Assembly: GCA_900544135.1 (NCBI GenBank)
Contig: UQTU01000001.1
Location: 47,678-111,677 of the forward strand
Source of the DNA: an uncultured Collinsella sp.
GTDB taxonomy: Bacteria > Actinomycetota > Coriobacteriia > Coriobacteriales > Coriobacteriaceae
Direction: 5' to 3'
Length of the DNA stretch: 64,000 nucleotides
The notes under the pieces were generated by a model. The model searched no databases and was not told the DNA's origin. It saw nothing but the letters and a program-made list of their open reading frames with translations. The first letter of the stretch is position 1. Each line of letters begins with the position of its first letter. Below, piece by piece: positions 3,660 to 61,818 of this stretch. A program made the translations under genes and the position numbers.

Positions 3660-4522
3660 AGACTTGATTGCCCGTTAGATCGGCACTGTTCCAAACCATG
3701 GGGGTAGGATGTCTCCCACCGCGGCCTGTGAGGTGAAATCTTGACCGCCGCGGAATCCGCCTACGGGCAACGCTCCATCTCTGGTTGGGGTGAAGCCTAT
3801 GAACTTGTTTCTCGAAATCCGGCGCCTCTCGATGTATGTGACCGGCATTGCCCGGAACCTCTACTCGATCTGGCGGGAATATAAGCAGTAACGGATAGCG
3901 AAGAGAGTCATGGAAAAGGGTCAGTTGCAGCCGACCCTTTAAGACGATAGAACCTGCGTTGCCCGCGCTTCCAAAGTTGACCGACTGAGGAGCGGGTTCC
4001 GCGGCACAACCTGATTTTATCCAGCGAGGCGGCTCTTTTCCAGCCGCTCCGCCGTTTATTTACACCTACCGCCACAAGTGGATTCCGCGCGAACGAGAGC
4101 AAAGAAACAACGCCGGCGCGGCCAACAGAACAGACAATCCATGCGATCAAAGAAATATAAAAGCTCCCGCGGCCTCGGTTCCTCGCCCAGGTCTAGGCAC
4201 TTTTCTTGGCACCATCGCACCACGTCCGCCATCGCCTCCGGCTCGACACTCATTAAAATGCAAGCGGGAAACGATCTCAAGATCACCAACAACAGCTTCA
4301 AGCAAGCGCTTGAGCAACTGTCACAACACGAGCGCCTGTAAATAGGAGCCAGTTTAATAAGTAAGAGAGCCTTGCCACCAATTGTCATTCTGGCGCGGTC
4401 AACCGATAAGTCAAATGGCAACTAACGGGTGTCAGATATACCAATATATGCAAGATTAACTGCTAGAATGCAATGGTGGACAGGCTCACCAACGTCGAAG
4501 AAGCATAAGGTAAGGAGTGCGC

Positions 4523-34672: not shown

Positions 34673-37600
34673 CTACACGTCCCTCCTTACAAACGTTCCT
34701 TCGTGGTTATACGAGCAGCGCGCATGCGCGGCCTGAGCCGACGCCGGGTCGACGGCGGCAACGTTGCCCGCCTCGAGCTCGCGCAGGCGCTCGGCGATGC
34801 CGGCCTCCACGCGATCGAGCAGGGCATCGAAGTCCATGCTGCCGCCCTCGCCCGGGAAGCCCTTCTTGAGGCCCGGGATGCGACCGTCACCGCGCTCTTC
34901 CTCGAGCAACTCGGCGCTCGCCGCACCGCGCAGCGCGGGCTTGCCGCCCTTGGTCGAAAAATAGAGCGCTGCACGGGTATCCAAGCCCAGTGCCCGACGC
35001 ATGGCCTGCGCGTAGATGAGCGTTTGGGTATGGGGCGGCAGCCAGCGCGGGTCGTCGATGGGGGCCTCGCCCGTCTCCTCGTCACGCACCGTGGGGTCGG
35101 CAAGCTTAAACTCCTCGACACCCGAACGATGCTTGTAGTCGATTACCACGGCGCGATTCTCGGCATCCACATCTACGCGGTCGATGCGCCCGCCGAGCGG
35201 CCAACCGGCATACTCGACCTGGAGCTCGTTGAACGCAAACTCCAGGTAGCGCGGAGCGAAGGGGGTGAGCGCCTCGGACTCGTAGGCAAGCACGCCCTCC
35301 AACTGCGGCAGAATCTCGGCCACCTGACGCTCCTCCACTGGAGAGAGCGGCACCAGCGGGCCCTCGGTACCGCGCTTGCCGGCGTGCTCGGCCAGGGTCT
35401 CGGCAAAGACCTCGTGCAGCAGCTCCTTCGCGCGCGGCAGATTCATGGGCGTCACGCGCTCCATGCCCTCTTGGGGCAGACGGGCATGCAGATGTTCCAG
35501 CACGTCGTGGACGAAGTTGCCCTTCTCCATGTTGCCAAAGCCCGCGTCGATAGACTGGGGCTTGACGCGATACGAGACAAACCAGCACAGCGGGCAAGTG
35601 GAATAAGCCTCGATCTGCGAGGCGGACGTCAGACGCGGCACGAGCGGCGCGCCCTCGCCCTCGCCGTCACGACGGCGCAGGACCAAATACGGCACGGCCT
35701 CGGCACTCAGATGCTGAGGGGCTTCACAGGTCACGCGCTCGCGCTTGAGGCCTTCGCCTGCCGCGGGATCGAAGTCCCTTACGATATCGCCCTCACCCAC
35801 GCACTTCGCCTTGTCGGCGTCAGCGGCCTTGTCGGCGTCAGCTGCCTTGTCGGCGTCTGCGGCCTTAGCAGCTTCAGCAACCTCGGCATGCGCCCGCAAC
35901 TCGGTCCACACGGCAGCCGGATAGCACTCGCGCGCCTGGCGATCGTGCGTCACGCGCGCAAGCGAAACCGGGCCGCGTGCCACCTGCATCGCGTGGCCAA
36001 AGCGCACGCGCAGCAAGGCCGCGGGCTCAAGCGTCACGCCCTCGCGACCAAGGCTCGCCGTCAGCGTAGCCAGCGGTCCCTCCTCGTGCGAGAGCGGATA
36101 GCTGTCCAGATCGACATCGGCAAACAGCACAGCATCGTAGCTGCCGGGGCGCAGAGCCGCCGCATCGGCAAGCGAAGCAAAACGAACCTGAGCACGTGGC
36201 GCACGGTCAACCTCGTAGGTCTCGTAATCGTAGGCGGTACTACGCTTGTCCACCTTGGTGCGAATGCCATCGAGCACGGGCACGATCGCGGCCTGCGACA
36301 CGTCGAGCGCGCGGGCGCCATTCATAAGGATGCCGATGACGTGGCGCAGCAGGGCCACCTCCGCTTGGCGACGGGCTTGGCCATCCAAGCTGCCCAGCGA
36401 GCGATCGGGCAACGCCTCGGCAACGGCAAGCATGGCCTTGAGCGCCGTCACGGGCTTGTCACGCCACAGCGCCTGGAACACGTCCGAGACCACGCACGGC
36501 ACGTTCTTAAACCAGTTCTCGTCGCTCGCCGCCTTGCGCGCGCCCCTCACCTGGCCTTGGACGCTCTGCAGCAGGCTCTTAACGCCCGCGGTAGTCTTGC
36601 TGCGCGAGAGACGCATATTCTTATCGAAGGTACGGGCATTGACGGCATCAGCGCCCGAAAGCGGACTGTAAATCCAGTCGGTAAGCTCCGGCGCGGGCCA
36701 CCACTCAGTCTTAGAAGCTGCCCCTTCGTCGGCGGCCTTCATACGCTCGATCAGGTTGGCGAGCGCCGTGAACTGCCTGCCCGCAATGGATTGAGAAAAC
36801 GCCGTGAACTCAACTGTCTCGGCAGCGATATGACGAGCCGCCAGACGAGAGGCGAGCTCACCGAACAGCTGGGGTGCCCGGGCAGAAACAACGAGCACGC
36901 GTACGGGGTCGGCGGGCGTTGCAGCAGCCTTATCGTCCTTGGACTCCTTGTGCGTTTTCGCCAACTTATCGATGGCGTCCGCATAAGCATGGGCACGGGC
37001 ATGGGGGCCGGCGACCTCAATAAAGGCAGGCTGAGCGGCGGTCCCGCAAGCGGCATCAGACGCGACGGCGTCCTCCCTCAGCGGCGCGGCCTCGAACAGC
37101 ACACCGCGGGCATCAAATGCCGCGGCAAGCTCCTCGCGCATCGCCGCCTGCTCGCAGGCAAGCAGTACGACGACCTCTCCCCCATTGTTCGCCACGGCAG
37201 ACAGCAGCTCGAGCAGGCCGTGCGTAAACGACGTGATACCGCGCACGCATACGGCGCGGGTGCACGCCGGCAGGTTATCGGCCAGGGCATCGGCCATAAT
37301 GTCAGCCGCCTCGCAGGGCTCGACCATATCTCGACGGTCCAAACCGCGCGCATAGGCGCACAAAAGTTCAAACACGCGAGCCTCGGCGTCGCTTTTGGGC
37401 TTGGGCTTGCAAACGTTGTCGCAGCAACGCTCGGTGCCTGTCCCTGCCACACCCGGCAGCACATCGCGAGCCATACGCGCGAGCATACGCACCGTGCCCT
37501 GGCTGCGCGAAAGCGGCTGCAGGTCGGCGTCGTCGAGGCGCGCTACCATGTCCGAAAACAGCATCTGGCGCTGCAGGTTGTCGACGAAACCGCGCCCGTC

Positions 37601-57917: not shown

Positions 57918-60185
57918 TTATTTGCGCTTGCCGCCGCCGTCGCCGGGGCGACGGGAGCTGCCACCGCGCTTGCCGCCACGGCTGTTGCCATAGCTGCCAC
58001 GATTATCGCGACCGCCGGCACGGCCGCCGCGGGAGCCGGCCTGGTTGCCGCCACGCCCGCCACGATAGCCGCCACGACGCTCATCGCGGGTGTCGTCGTA
58101 GTTGCGCCAGTCATCGCGACGATCGCGGCTGGCACGCGGGTCGCGACGATCGCGCGACTCATTCGAACGACCGGCGCCGCTGCGGCCACCGTTGCCACGA
58201 GCGCCCTCGCGACGCTCACCACCGCGGCCGCCCTCGCGGCCTCCGCGCTCGTCAAAGCGCTTGCCGCCGCGGGACTCGCCGCCGCGGGTACCACGCTCGT
58301 CACGCGAACCACGGCCTTCGCCGCCGCGACGCCCATCACGGCCACCGCGCTCGTCATCACGACCGGAACGACGGCGGTCGCCCGCACCGCGCTTGCCACC
58401 GCGCGAACCGCGGCCCTCGTCCTCGCGCTCGACACGACGACGGCCACCGCGATCCTCATCCTCTCGACGGCGGCGATGCGCCTCGCCCTGGAACTGCTTG
58501 GCACGACGCTCGGCACGGTTACCGCGCGCAGGCTGCTCAGCGGCACCAGCACCAGCGCGCTCCTCGGCAGCCACCTCGCGGGCCACGCTCTCCACAGCCT
58601 CGTCCACGCGGGCCTGAACGCCCTCGCGCACGCGGGTCTTGCCGCCGCGCTTGGGACGGCTCGGGCGCTCGCCGTCGCCACGACGCTCGTCGCGACCGCG
58701 GTTGGAACGACCAGCCACGTCGCCGTAATCGTCGCCGTTACGCCTGCCGTCGCGACGCGCTTGCTCGAGTTTCTTCTTGCTCTTGGACTTGCCGCGCTTG
58801 GTCTTCTTCACCTTAAAGGCGGCAGGATCGCGCTCGGGGTCAACGGCGGGCGGGTTGGGACCCACGTGCAGGTCGCCCGCTTCGTAAATATCGGCCGTCT
58901 TGTCCATGAGCTTCTCAATCTCGTAGAACTCGTCGACGTCCTGCTCGGTCACAAACGTAATGGCCCAGCCCAGCTCGCCGGCGCGGCCCGTACGGCCAAT
59001 GCGGTGGATATAGTCGGTCGGCTCGGCCGGCACGTCGAAGTTCACGACGTAGCGCACGTCGCTAATGTCGATGCCGCGGGCGAGAACATCGGTTGCCACC
59101 AGCACGTCGACGGTGCCGTCGCGGAAGGCAGAAAGCGCGCGCTCGCGCTGGGCCTGGCTGCGGTTGCCGTGAATCGCGGCGGCCTTGATGCCCTTGCGCT
59201 CAAGGCGACGGCAGCAGCTGTCGGCGCGGTGCTTGGTGCGCATAAAGACGATCGTGCGCTCCGGGCCTTCCTTTTTGAGGAACTCGGGCAACAGGTTGTT
59301 CTTGGCCTCGATGGACACCGGGAACACAAACTGGTCGACGGTGTCGGCGGTCGACGTGGCGGGCGCGATCTCCACGCGAGCCGGATCGCTCACCAGGTCG
59401 GTGATCTCGCCCACGGCCTCCTCGTCGAGCGTCGCCGAGAACAGCAGCGTCTGGCGCTCGGCCGGCGTCTCACGCACAATGCGGCGGACGGCGGGCAAAA
59501 AGCCCATGTCGAGCATGCGGTCGGCTTCATCGAGCACCAGCACCTTGACCTCGTTCAGGTGGCAGGCGCCCTGCTCGATCAGATCGACCAGACGGCCCGG
59601 CGTGGCGACCAGAATGTCGCAGCCGTACTTGAGTGCCGCGGTCTGCGGCTTGTAGCTCACGCCGCCCACGACGGTCACGGCAACGTGGCCCGTGACGTCG
59701 GCGATCTTGCTCGCGACCTCGTCGATCTGCTGGGCGAGCTCGCGCGTGGGGGTGATGACGAGCATCACGGGGCCACGGCCGTTGCCCTCGGGCTTTTTAG
59801 CACCGCGACGGCGGTTGCGGCCGCCGCGCTCGCGCACGGGTTTGGGAGGAGCGATGTGCTCCAGATTGTTCATGGTCGGCAGCAAGAAGGCGGCCGTCTT
59901 GCCGGTGCCGGTCTGGGCGGCGGCAAGCAGGTCGCGGCCCTCGAGCACCACGGGGATGGAGCCGGCCTGGACAGGCGTGGGCGCCGTGTAGCCAAGGTTC
60001 TCGATGGCACGAAGCATCTCGTCCGAAAGTCCCAGCTCGTCAAAGGCGGGCAGGTTCTCGGTCGCGGACTCGACGGCCTGGGCAGCATTGGCCTCGTCGG
60101 CAGCATCGAAGGCAGCCTGGGTCATGGCCTCGCGGGTCTCGTCCAGAATCTCGGCGTCCGTGACGTCGGATGCAGAATTACGCAT
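57918..60185 (-). CDS. DEAD-box ATP-dependent RNA helicase with an approximately 350-aa Arg/Gly/Asp/Glu-rich low-complexity C-terminal tail
   Basis: Q motif, AQTGTGKT, DEAD and SAT motifs, and a helicase C domain. The tail is full of RGG/RDR repeats. Start at the ATG at 60185. Confidence 0.9.
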   Translation of the reverse strand: MRNSASDVTDAEILDETREAMTQAAFDAADEANAAQAVESATENLPAFDELGLSDEMLRAIENLGYTAPTPVQAGSIPVVLEGRDLLAAAQTGTGKTAAFLLPTMNNLEHIAPPKPVRERGGRNRRRGAKKPEGNGRGPVMLVITPTRELAQQIDEVASKIADVTGHVAVTVVGGVSYKPQTAALKYGCDILVATPGRLVDLIEQGACHLNEVKVLVLDEADRMLDMGFLPAVRRIVRETPAERQTLLFSATLDEEAVGEITDLVSDPARVEIAPATSTADTVDQFVFPVSIEAKNNLLPEFLKKEGPERTIVFMRTKHRADSCCRRLERKGIKAAAIHGNRSQAQRERALSAFRDGTVDVLVATDVLARGIDISDVRYVVNFDVPAEPTDYIHRIGRTGRAGELGWAITFVTEQDVDEFYEIEKLMDKTADIYEAGDLHVGPNPPAVDPERDPAAFKVKKTKRGKSKSKKKLEQARRDGRRNGDDYGDVAGRSNRGRDERRGDGERPSRPKRGGKTRVREGVQARVDEAVESVAREVAAEERAGAGAAEQPARGNRAERRAKQFQGEAHRRRREDEDRGGRRRVEREDEGRGSRGGKRGAGDRRRSGRDDERGGRDGRRGGEGRGSRDERGTRGGESRGGKRFDERGGREGGRGGERREGARGNGGRSGAGRSNESRDRRDPRASRDRRDDWRNYDDTRDERRGGYRGGRGGNQAGSRGGRAGGRDNRGSYGNSRGGKRGGSSRRPGDGGGKRK

Positions 60186-60456
60186 ATGTTGTTGTTCCTT
60201 ATCTGCACGCGCGATGGGCACGGCATGCGGCCGCGCGGGCGTGCTTGGTAGTGCGCTAATACATACAAAAACGGGTGCGCACAGAGAGGACGTTGCTCAG
60301 CACGCTGGCGATCGCTTTGGCAGCCCTATCACGCGCCGTCCAGACGCAGCAGCTCTAAGCGATGGAGCAGATTCGCCGCCGGTTAGTATACCCGTGCTTC
60401 GCATGCCCCCACGTAAACCACAGATGACGGTGCAGGAGGAGTGGGCCTGGGTCGAT

Positions 60457-60677
60457 TGTCTCAATCTGTAACAGTTACGGGGCAAAACCAGGTTCCTACT
60501 GTTACAGATCGAGACATTCAGTCAGCCCCTTGGCTAACATCTCGATCAGTAACATCTACAGGGCAAATCTTCCTCTACGTGTTACAGATCGAGACAAACG
60601 GTCGACACGGCCCACAAACGTCTCAATCTGTAACAGTTACGGAGCAAAACCGGCCCCAATTGTTACAGATCAAGACA
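60457..60677. repeat. Cluster of five copies (two direct, three inverted) of the 17-mer TGTCTCRATCTGTAACA in the DEAD-box/FHA intergenic region
   Basis: Direct copies at 60457-60473 and 60619-60635, each extending to a 33-bp direct repeat. Inverted copies (tgttacagatcgagaca) at 60500-60516, 60580-60596 and 60661-60677. Two of these form 17-bp-arm hairpins with roughly 26-nt loops. Confidence 0.65.
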
Positions 60678-60855
60678 GAGGGGAATTTCCGTCCAGTCCA
60701 AACCAAATCTCTCAGTCTTCCTGCAATTTCGAACATGTGGCCTATAATGTTGCTTTGGTTACGCTATATATTGCGCAGCCATTTAATACGTCGCCCACCG
60801 GGGGGCATTAATTCCTATCGCCATATTGGCTAGGAAGCAATCAAAGGAGGTATCC

Positions 60856-61818
60856 GTGGCAGCAGAGACGCCTTGCTCGGTCCTCTATAACGATATTCGC
60901 TCGTTCGGCGGTCTTAAACATCTCGAGATCGCCCGAATGCTCATCAATGGAAACTCTTATCTCGGCAGTACCCTGCTCGAGAAATGCTCTTCCAACCGCT
61001 CGTATCTCACCCGTTACATCGTCCATCGCAAGCCTGACCAGTGCGCGCCCTCCATCTACAGCGACTTTACCGTCACCACGCTCAACCTTTCCTCGGCAAT
61101 CTGCAGCAAGCTCGGCGGCGGCGAGTCCGCCTATCGGGCAATCGCCGAGCACTATCGCGGTCCGGCCGCCAACGAAATGATGTCGGCTCTCGCCAGCTAC
61201 AAACTGGACAGCCGCCTATATGCAAATGCCCTCAATCGCATCGACAACTTTGACGGCAATGCCGTGCGCGAAAAAAGCACGCTCTTCTTGATGCTCTTTG
61301 TGGCAACGGGAGCACTTGCCGATCCCGTTCAAGGCGTGGCCACCGTCGAGCGCTTTTGCGACAGCAAGACGGGCGGGCACTTTGGCACCACCGAAACTAC
61401 CGTCGGACGTGGCTTTATGGGCAGCCTGGAGCAGCCACGCACCGTCGCCCCCAACCTCGGTCTGCTCAGGACACATGCCGACAACTGCGTCGACATGCAA
61501 ATCCATCCCCTCACACGCGATCCGCGCGGCACCGTGATTGGTTCTTTGCCCAAAACCTCGCCCAGCATCACCGATGTGGGCGCCGACGCATCGCGCGAGC
61601 ATCTTCGCATTTGGCTTGAGGGTGAGCACTGGTACGCCCAGGGCCTTGGATCGACCAACGGCACAGTGCTCGAATCGGGCGCGGGCGACGGCGATATCGT
61701 AATCGAGCCGCCCCGCGACCAACGAGAGCCCGGCAAGATCTATCCCCCAGTGGAAATTGAAAACAGCGACAGGCTCCATCTGGGTCTCTACACGACATTC
61801 CTTGTCATTGTGGACTAG
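60856..61818 (+). CDS. FHA-domain-containing protein
   Basis: C-terminal FHA pattern (GRGFMGSLEQP...HLRIWLEGEHWYAQGLGSTNGTVLE...LHLGLYTTFLV). Start taken at the GTG at 60856 with SD AAAGGAGG 5 nt upstream. The tracked 60826 start has no SD. Confidence 0.65.
   Translation: MAAETPCSVLYNDIRSFGGLKHLEIARMLINGNSYLGSTLLEKCSSNRSYLTRYIVHRKPDQCAPSIYSDFTVTTLNLSSAICSKLGGGESAYRAIAEHYRGPAANEMMSALASYKLDSRLYANALNRIDNFDGNAVREKSTLFLMLFVATGALADPVQGVATVERFCDSKTGGHFGTTETTVGRGFMGSLEQPRTVAPNLGLLRTHADNCVDMQIHPLTRDPRGTVIGSLPKTSPSITDVGADASREHLRIWLEGEHWYAQGLGSTNGTVLESGAGDGDIVIEPPRDQREPGKIYPPVEIENSDRLHLGLYTTFLVIVD

Follow-up and report, generated by a model that had tools for sequence, protein, structure and literature searches.

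The closest described systems to the repeat array analysed here are the REP/BIME elements of Enterobacteria and Pseudomonas, the NIMEs of Neisseria, the mycobacterial MIRUs and the sopC site of the F plasmid. REP/BIME elements are extragenic, genus-restricted palindromes with conserved stems and variable loops. They often form clusters, differ in number from strain to strain, show enrichment between convergent genes and are targets of IS insertion. NIMEs consist of variable repeat units, each flanked by conserved inverted repeats of about 20 bp, termed dRS3. MIRUs are direct repeats with small ORFs, and their orientation follows that of the operon. The sopC site is composed of 12 repeats of 43 bp, each with an inverted-repeat binding site, and is found at one locus beside the partition genes. 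The genus Collinsella is abundant in the human gut and is heavily subdivided at the species level. In a literature search, no REP or MITE elements were found to be described in Collinsella, and the arm sequence reported below was absent from papers; within the searchable literature, the repeat family is previously undescribed.

The array is located in the window, that is, the whole 64,000-nt stretch of DNA that was analysed, between the genes of a DEAD-box helicase and an FHA-domain protein. The features of this region are as follows.

57918–60221, minus strand: DEAD-box helicase gene (Pfam DEAD, 1.5e-46, and Helicase_C, 2e-34; RefSeq orthologue 'DEAD/DEAH box helicase')
60222–60440, minus strand: helicase upstream region, near-invariant in an alignment of six orthologous intergenic regions
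60458–60676, no strand: whole array, three palindromic units in tandem with a period of 81 bp
60458–60515: unit 1, with left arm 60458–60473, centre 60474–60499 and right arm 60500–60515
60516–60538: inter-unit spacer 1, 23 nt, of variable sequence, read from the sequence
60539–60595: unit 2, with left arm 60539–60554 (ATCTCGATCAGTAACA, degenerate), a 25-nt centre and right arm 60580–60595
60596–60619: inter-unit spacer 2, 24 nt, read from the sequence
60620–60676: unit 3, with left arm 60620–60635, a 25-nt centre and right arm 60661–60676
60743–60748, plus strand: TATAAT hexamer, 67 bp downstream of the array, inside a conserved block and kept in all orthologues
60856–61818, plus strand: FHA-domain protein gene (Pfam FHA, 5.6e-06; RefSeq orthologue an FHA domain-containing protein)

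The helicase and FHA genes are the context of the array and lie outside the repeat element. The start of the FHA gene was placed at the GTG at 60856 by comparison with homologues, which are 320 aa long and extend over 97% of the 330-aa ORF. The helicase is encoded on the minus strand and the FHA protein on the plus strand, so that the array is located between divergent genes, as the earlier note had stated; it is 236 bp from the helicase start and 179 bp from the FHA start. The near-invariant region at 60222–60440 probably holds the leader and promoter of the helicase gene, with the array beyond it. The TATAAT hexamer is read by us as a candidate −10 element of the FHA/kinase operon; a promoter scan of the region called no site, this hexamer included. 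As judged from these positions, the array probably sits upstream of both the helicase and FHA promoters.

Each unit in the window consists of a 16-bp arm, GTCTCRATCTGTAACA, a centre of 25–26 bp and the inverted arm. A search of the 64-kb window for GTCTCRATCTGTAACA with up to 3 mismatches gave 6 matches, compared with 0.48 expected, and all of them, 3 forward and 3 reverse, are inside 60458–60676, with none elsewhere in the window. The arms have 0 and 0 mismatches in unit 1, 2 and 0 in unit 2, and 0 and 1 in unit 3; the corresponding inverted repeats, I1, I4 and I6, have arms of 22 nt with 91% complementarity, 23 nt with 83% and 19 nt with 84%, respectively. The centre of unit 1 is 26 nt long, 1 nt above the norm of the family. 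The three units start 81 and 81 bp apart, Tandem Repeats Finder reports a period of 81 with 2.7 copies and a score of 205, and the direct-repeat families D1–D3 in the array are spaced by 81/81 and 80/81.

These results confirm in part the observation on the repeats made in the earlier note from the sequence. The two direct repeats of about 33 bp that it described are present (60458–60489 and 60620–60651, about 32–33 bp, 97% identical), and each of them pairs with an inverted copy downstream, as represented by I1 and I6. The array had been described as five copies of a 17-mer at irregular spacing. The arm copies are six, their spacing is regular, and the common element is a 16-mer, since the leading T is not shared by all copies. 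The inverted copy at 60580–60595, taken as solo, has a partner in the degenerate forward copy at 60539–60554, which carries 2 mismatches. The near-palindrome GTAACAGTTAC is indeed found in units 1 and 3; it is not a feature of the family, where the usual edge of the loop is NNTAG.

The motif is widespread in Collinsella, and the 17-mer of the earlier note is not unique to this spot. A pattern scan with ATCTGTAACA-N16-32-TGTTACAGAT over one genome per GTDB species gave at least 120 loci, nearly all of them in Collinsella, with several loci in the same genome. The true members of the family among these have a gap of exactly 25 and occur as tandem copies at 80–81 bp. Relaxed arm searches on the listed loci extracted 385–389 units, and the sample contains at least 43 distinct intergenic sites, from which the Chao1 estimate is about 73. 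The best reading of the window array is that it represents, at this locus, a family of interspersed extragenic repeats specific to Collinsella.

The distribution within one genome was examined on the whole of NZ_OY725717.1, an 899,693-bp C. aerofaciens record from PLSDB, which contains 13 arrays with 30 units and, in addition, half of a unit that an IS200/IS605 insertion has cut. All the arrays are within 402–877 kb, with none in the first 400 kb, and there are two local clusters, at 402.7–422.7 kb and 751–761 kb. A link to the origin or terminus was rejected, as the record has one sign of GC skew and the arrays are not at a skew switch. This record is labelled a plasmid, yet it encodes rpoBC, ribosomal protein operons, dnaE and recA.

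The basic unit of the family is a 57-bp palindromic module, in which the 16-bp arm GTCTCGATCTGTAACA is followed by a 25-bp centre and then by the arm in inverted form. The length of 57 bp was found in 385 of 389 units, and 220 of the 232 intervals had a period of 80 bp (131 intervals) or 81 bp (89 intervals). The arrays hold 1–8 units, head to tail. The hairpin is taken as the unit because single units and the ends of arrays are always arm(+)...arm(−); a spacer-centred transposon with TG...CA ends was rejected on the same finding. The profile of 360 distinct stacked units is almost perfectly symmetric. Conservation in the arm is at least 95% at 13 of 16 positions (2–4 and 7–16), and only positions 1 (G/A), 5 (C/T/A) and 6 (G/A) are variable. 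The centre has TAG and CTA edges, an A/T run at positions 28–30 and G/C-rich shoulders, and immediately outside the arms come short runs of A/T, GTTT or AAAC in either orientation. The remaining positions of the centre and spacer carry almost no information, while their lengths are fixed at 25 and 23–24 bp, respectively. The centres are almost all unique among the units. When the units are oriented by the central A run, the core is weakly asymmetric; this orientation is random within arrays (107 neighbours in the same orientation vs 97 different), and the orientation of units is unrelated to the strand of the adjacent genes.

The family shares with REP/BIME elements the general properties described above, including the insertion of an IS, as an IS200/IS605 copy is found in one Collinsella array. 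The extragenic, imperfect palindromes occur many times in a genome, with 30 units in 0.9 Mb, although this copy number is lower than that of classical REP families. The Collinsella unit is also longer, with its 57 bp, 16-bp arms, fixed 25-bp centre and strict period of 80/81 bp, whereas the REP hairpin is about 20–40 nt long and is preceded by a GTAG-like tetranucleotide; the Collinsella unit has no GTAG and is flanked by A/T runs. Its arms show no covariation in pairing, unlike those of REP/BIME elements. The cognate RAYT gene of a REP family encodes a Y1/HUH transposase and is usually present once, with the repeats on both of its sides. No RAYT-type gene flanked by units was found in the 0.9-Mb record, and the sole Y1 transposase there is the tnpA of IS200/IS605, which is present in two identical copies with hairpins of its own (CCACCC). 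The family is not a classical REP.

The other systems correspond in part. As in NIMEs, regular short inverted repeats separate variable segments in multi-unit intergenic arrays, and gene content is variable; there is no sequence similarity, the variable segments of Collinsella have fixed lengths, and its arms strictly alternate. No phage or IS110-type integration was seen at the Collinsella arms in this comparison. Similarly to MIRU-VNTR loci, the family has an actinobacterial host, consists of intergenic units that are tens of bp long and arranged in tandem, is found at a few dozen loci in each genome and differs between strains by whole units. In contrast to MIRUs, its units are palindromic, free in orientation and non-coding, and they also occur in divergent regions. 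Since periods of 80 and 81 bp are mixed, the units cannot be coding, and a coding repeat of 27 codons was rejected because the 80-bp period is the commoner one. An integron attC site was also rejected: CTGTAAC and GTTACAG do not fit R''(RYYYAAC)/R'(GTTRRRY) and are located at the inner ends of the arms, whereas these consensus sequences are at the outer ends in attC; the units are in tandem without cassettes, and the annotation shows no integron integrase next to the arrays. Like sopC, the family has units in a phased tandem order, with conservation limited to a short inverted-repeat site and no constraint on the linker, although it occupies dozens of chromosomal sites and has no adjacent cognate gene. 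The combination of a conserved site and a free linker in phased units is the pattern expected for cooperative protein binding.

The fixed length of the hypervariable segments between the repeats is also what an array that acquires spacers would give, CRISPR-like or other, with the 25-nt centres as acquired sequence. In this case, however, the repeats alternate in orientation, the centres share a consensus and are inherited at orthologous sites, and the array has no match in a phage collection. There are 13 arrays in 0.9 Mb with no cas genes annotated alongside. A spacer-acquiring array can be practically dismissed, which agrees with the earlier note in its statement that this is not a CRISPR array.

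The helicase-FHA site was compared between relatives. Those with 97–98% identity in the FHA protein have 1, 2 or 3 units at this site between near-identical flanks: 1 unit in L045 and L067, 2 units in L061, L099, L051 and L142, and 3 units in the window. Unit 1 of the window is missing from the alleles with 1 and 2 units. The window locus has an orthologue in C. aerofaciens record NZ_OY725717.1 as well, where one unit is present. No array was found within 4 kb of the FHA orthologues at 80–85% and 62% identity, and the upstream neighbours of these genes differ. In the sampled lineages at 85–90% identity (L145–L150), the region upstream of the FHA gene is without an array. A Zn-ribbon gene is located between the helicase and FHA genes in these lineages, and the left junction is an array: in L149 and L150, where the helicase is visible, the array is upstream of the helicase, behind the Zn-ribbon gene that separates it from the FHA gene. 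Another array is found downstream of the kinase gene in the 85–90% lineages. No empty allele of the helicase-FHA locus was present among the fetched loci, and a junction pattern gave 0 matches in JGI metagenomes.

The earlier note had proposed a multi-site operator or iteron set that is specific to this locus and serves the divergent promoters of the helicase and the FHA/kinase pair. The location of the array between divergent genes, 236 bp and 179 bp from their starts, and the several phased copies of a conserved site are in line with this proposal. The same arm sites are nevertheless found at 43 or more unrelated loci in every gene orientation, including the convergent ends of genes, and the number of units varies from 1 to 3 between close relatives while the flanking upstream regions are conserved. 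Because the more distant relatives sampled, at 62–90% FHA identity, have no array in the region upstream of the FHA gene, the array is not a conserved part of FHA/kinase regulation. An operator of this kind is very improbable, and the repeats should not be taken as a regulator of the FHA/kinase signalling pair. The part of the proposal that stands is an array of protein-binding sites acting at the level of DNA, which is still the best guess for a mechanism.

The arrays are always intergenic. Counted per array in the listed loci, 40 are divergent, 40 convergent and 30 tandem; counted per distinct site (n = 43), 19 are tail-tail, 12 head-head and 12 head-tail. According to our reading of the coordinates in the RefSeq annotation, several of the 13 arrays in NZ_OY725717.1 are convergent, several are tandem and at least two are divergent. 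Between convergent genes, hairpins of a second family, which resemble terminators and consist of CCACCACAAAGG...CCTTTGTGGTGG and then a T run, often bracket the arrays on both sides, and the arrays bracketed in this way would lie in untranscribed DNA. The genes beside the arrays are ordinary and diverse, and a clustering of the neighbour genes gave no protein family that recurs beside arrays in many contexts.

Arrays bracket individual genes or small modules, namely an Nramp gene, an AbiEi/DUF559-like gene, an AAA-ATPase cassette, lac/PTS paralogues and a metal-resistance block, and they coincide with junctions of gene presence and absence between lineages. The flanks of the AAA-ATPase cassette are the same whether or not it is there, and the cassette is bounded by a direct duplication of about 245 bp that includes a 2-unit array. 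The genes between paired arrays encode Nramp, the AAA ATPase, a membrane protein and a protein of 364–378 aa without a Pfam match, which by eye looks like a DUF559/AbiEi-type protein. A transposase between paired arrays was considered and rejected, as none is among the genes there.

Orthologous sites, compared by anchoring on their flanks, differ by whole units and measure 57, 138, 218, 298, 378 or 620 bp. The centres of orthologous arrays match directly in 394 pairs and inverted in none, and a centre that is inverted by recombination between the arms was rejected for this reason. Arrays are also related between distant sites. In one genome, a stretch of 215 bp, spacers included, is related between two arrays that lie 160 kb from each other, and each of three paralogous lac/PTS modules terminates in an array whose centres are related, which indicates that arrays also spread as blocks, sometimes with neighbour genes.

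Such a distribution could be explained by a purely selfish, non-autonomous element of the MITE or REP/REPIN type without host function, in which a transposase encoded elsewhere would use the 16-bp arms as terminal inverted repeats or as hairpin signals, and the arrays would grow by local insertion and unequal recombination. The dispersed intergenic location, with enrichment between convergent genes where insertion is least harmful, the difference in unit number between strains and the position of arrays at borders of gene presence and absence are consistent with this explanation. The patchy and clustered distribution in the 0.9-Mb record fits local spread, and the related arrays 160 kb apart suggest the duplication of a block. 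The terminal inverted repeats of a MITE are present as well, as the 16-bp arms are conserved in 385 units. However, no excess of direct repeats was obtained for target-site duplications of 3–8 bp at any boundary offset (at most 0.11 in excess identity). No parent IS with these termini was found in the 0.9-Mb record or the loci; the lone arm-like matches in the record number 6 compared with 6.8 expected by chance, and none of them is at an annotated IS. The only Y1 transposase seen belongs to the ordinary IS200/IS605 described above, which has other hairpins and is itself inserted into an array. The uniqueness of almost all centres gives no sign of recent copying between sites, and the arms are intact in old, diverged units, unlike those of decaying selfish copies. 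That the family is a MITE is not demonstrable from these results, and we consider a purely selfish element to be somewhat unlikely.

The conservation of the arms is evident from the divergence of orthologous units. The arms diverge by 0.045–0.053, nearly all of it at positions 1, 5 and 6, compared with 0.17–0.19 for the centres, 0.25 for the spacers and 0.058 for the flanks 60–210 bp away; the orthology of the units is positional and may be imperfect, which could inflate the values of the centres and spacers. The units were ascertained through the similarity of their arms, and the apparent conservation of the arms is inflated to that extent. The conservation is nevertheless probably real, as internal units, which were not individually ascertained, have rarely decayed: an internal interval of double length, corresponding to a unit with decayed arms, was found in only 3 of 232 cases. 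The centres and spacers are without indels despite their saturated sequence. This pattern points to a purifying constraint on the sequence of the arms and on the geometry of the unit, and not on pairing.

The pairing of the arms was analysed at the variable positions, where the frequency of Watson-Crick pairs is at the chance level (0.49 vs 0.53 and 0.53 vs 0.50 expected) and the mutual information is about 0. Over 342 oriented units, G.T is as frequent as A.C. In a covariation sample of 86 non-orthologous units with 500 shuffles, 72.5% of the cells pair, compared with 75.2 ± 0.6% in the shuffles, and the covariation score is 0.133, compared with 0.163 in the shuffles, all 500 of which scored at least as high. 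The 93.8% pairing of the arms is due solely to the single sequence that both of them keep. The pairing of the hairpin is not under selection. An apical stem within the centre was also rejected, since the complementarity of symmetric centre positions is below chance and the centre is asymmetric.

The arrays could still act at the level of RNA, as long hairpins transcribed with the neighbour genes that work as bidirectional terminators, stabilisers of 3' ends, substrates of RNase III or processed small RNAs with a sequence-specific RNA-binding protein. The hairpins of the window have a very stable predicted structure, with z-scores near −9.7 for either strand, and the array folds with −121.8 kcal/mol on the minus strand vs −111.8 kcal/mol on the plus strand. 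Four of the five arm mismatches in the window are G.U on the minus strand, which would also fit such a role. Because a perfect palindrome yields the same hairpin RNA in either direction, with identical arms, the independence of orientation is compatible with a function in RNA. Against these points, the arms pair no better than with shuffled partners, and the 13 near-invariant bases of each arm are not needed for the structure. As G.T and A.C are equally common in the whole family, a minus-strand RNA as a general rule was rejected, and the G.U bias of the window is attributed to local noise. Arrays are also found in divergent regions, where they probably precede both promoters, and in places enclosed by a pair of terminator-like hairpins. 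An Rfam search of the window gave no match for the array at the gathering threshold, and at E values up to 10 gave only sub-threshold look-alikes of microRNA hairpins. An RNA-level element is accordingly judged quite unlikely, and the pair of structured RNA motifs that the earlier note had offered as an alternative finds no support in the covariation, in Rfam or in the orientation relative to transcription. Many arrays are located 14–60 bp past stop codons and may be transcribed.

Constrained arms, the lack of covariation and the rigid spacing point to a sequence-specific DNA-protein system, which would be undescribed in Coriobacteriia. We consider it rather probable that this genus-specific family carries, in its arms, sequence-specific recognition sites, most likely for a DNA-binding protein. 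In such a mechanism, each arm would be read as a site on double-stranded DNA, and the candidates for the reader are an architectural or regulatory protein of the host and a domesticated recombinase or transposase. The centres of the arms are 41 and about 39.5 bp apart, which is about four helical turns, and the sites would face about the same side of the helix; this spacing would allow cooperative binding along the array. The length of an array would change through recombination or slippage between units.

A more specific and doubtful form of the recognition-site reading is that the arrays are phased landing platforms for a Collinsella-specific DNA-binding protein, which may act as a marker or insulator at the boundaries of gene modules, or recombine there. 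It would explain why the arms are intact amid drift, why the geometry is fixed, why modules are bracketed and why arrays are at junctions of gene content. For recombination at boundaries, pdif modules and NIMEs are comparable systems.

The family marks regions of variable gene content and offers VNTR-like loci for the typing of strains. In our view, it is a likely cause of breaks in assemblies and of spurious 'HGT breakpoints'. The consensus arm could be used as bait for the putative reader protein. Elsewhere in the window, the Rfam search located a Collinsella-1 RNA at 3918–4117, the sequence of which is unrelated to the array.

On the other side of the array from the FHA-domain gene, the region of approximately 220 bp 5' of the DEAD-box helicase start (window 60222-60440) is near-identical across six orthologous loci, whereas the adjoining array differs among them. 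This near-identity beside a variable array suggests that the region contains a long conserved leader and the promoter of the helicase gene.

Where FHA identity is 85-90%, the Collinsella lineages carry a zinc-ribbon protein gene (390-414 aa) directly 5' of the FHA gene, with a Ser/Thr kinase gene beyond it in some of them. Its region in the comparison loci is:
L149 1136-3000, zinc-ribbon gene region; likewise in L145-L148 and L150

In L149 the gene is placed between the helicase and FHA genes, whereas the window lineage has no zinc-ribbon gene there, and the array forms the left junction of this presence/absence difference. The approximately 170 bp 5' of FHA in the window have no counterpart in the 85-90% lineages (L145-L150).

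A presence/absence polymorphism between the same flanking sequences was also observed for a 368-aa AAA-ATPase gene, which matches the Pfam families AAA_16 and ATPase_2 and, weakly, BrxC/D. The cassette lies in the following regions, which were compared with L048 5423-6158, L070 and L078:
L043 2059-4217, AAA-ATPase cassette
L035 4375-6545, AAA-ATPase cassette

Where present, the gene is bounded by a direct duplication of approximately 245 bp, which consists of a terminator-like hairpin, a two-unit array and 62 bp of the 3' end of the adjacent gene.

The arrays of palindromic units are often bracketed, on one side or both, by hairpins of a second dispersed family. These have the form CCACCACAAAGG-N~9-CCTTTGTGGTGG with a trailing T run and resemble terminators. 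The window contains no copy, and 16 are found in the 0.9-Mb C. aerofaciens record NZ_OY725717.1 (L151-L168):
L014 7569-7601 and 7913-7945, hairpins
L120 5972-6000 and 6195-6227, hairpins
NZ_OY725717.1 510842, 511235, 670226 and 13 more, hairpins

PLSDB lists this record (899,693 bp) as 'plasmid 6'. Its genes include rpoBC, dnaE, recA, ftsK, rho and most of the operons for ribosomal proteins, and its GC skew has one sign only; it is a chromosome piece rather than a plasmid.

Five arrays and one truncated array are clustered in a 20-kb stretch of the record (400-423 kb; L151 1-23000) and divide it into small modules of genes: FHA and kinase, a copper/heavy-metal ATPase block, an AbiEi/DUF559-like gene, gltBD and Nramp. 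Around the cluster, the record is free of arrays for 100 kb in one direction and for over 77 kb in the opposite one. The array 3' of the Nramp gene is interrupted, with half a unit remaining, by an insertion element:
L151 22699-23480 (NZ_OY725717.1 422699-423480), IS200/IS605 tnpA element

The element carries hairpins of its own (CCACCC...GGGTGG), and a second, identical tnpA copy is located at 533435-533893 of the record. Since the element sits inside an array, the palindromic repeats serve as IS targets, in which they resemble REPs.

Elsewhere in the window, a complete-length Collinsella-1 RNA scores far above the gathering score of 35 bits, assigns the DNA to Collinsella and has no sequence relationship to the window's palindromic array:
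3918-4117, minus strand, Collinsella-1 RNA (Rfam RF01700, 149 bits)

The tandem repeat GCCTTGTCGGCGTCAGCG at window 35808-35878 (period 18/36 bp, 3.3 copies, 92% matches) may be a coding repeat.
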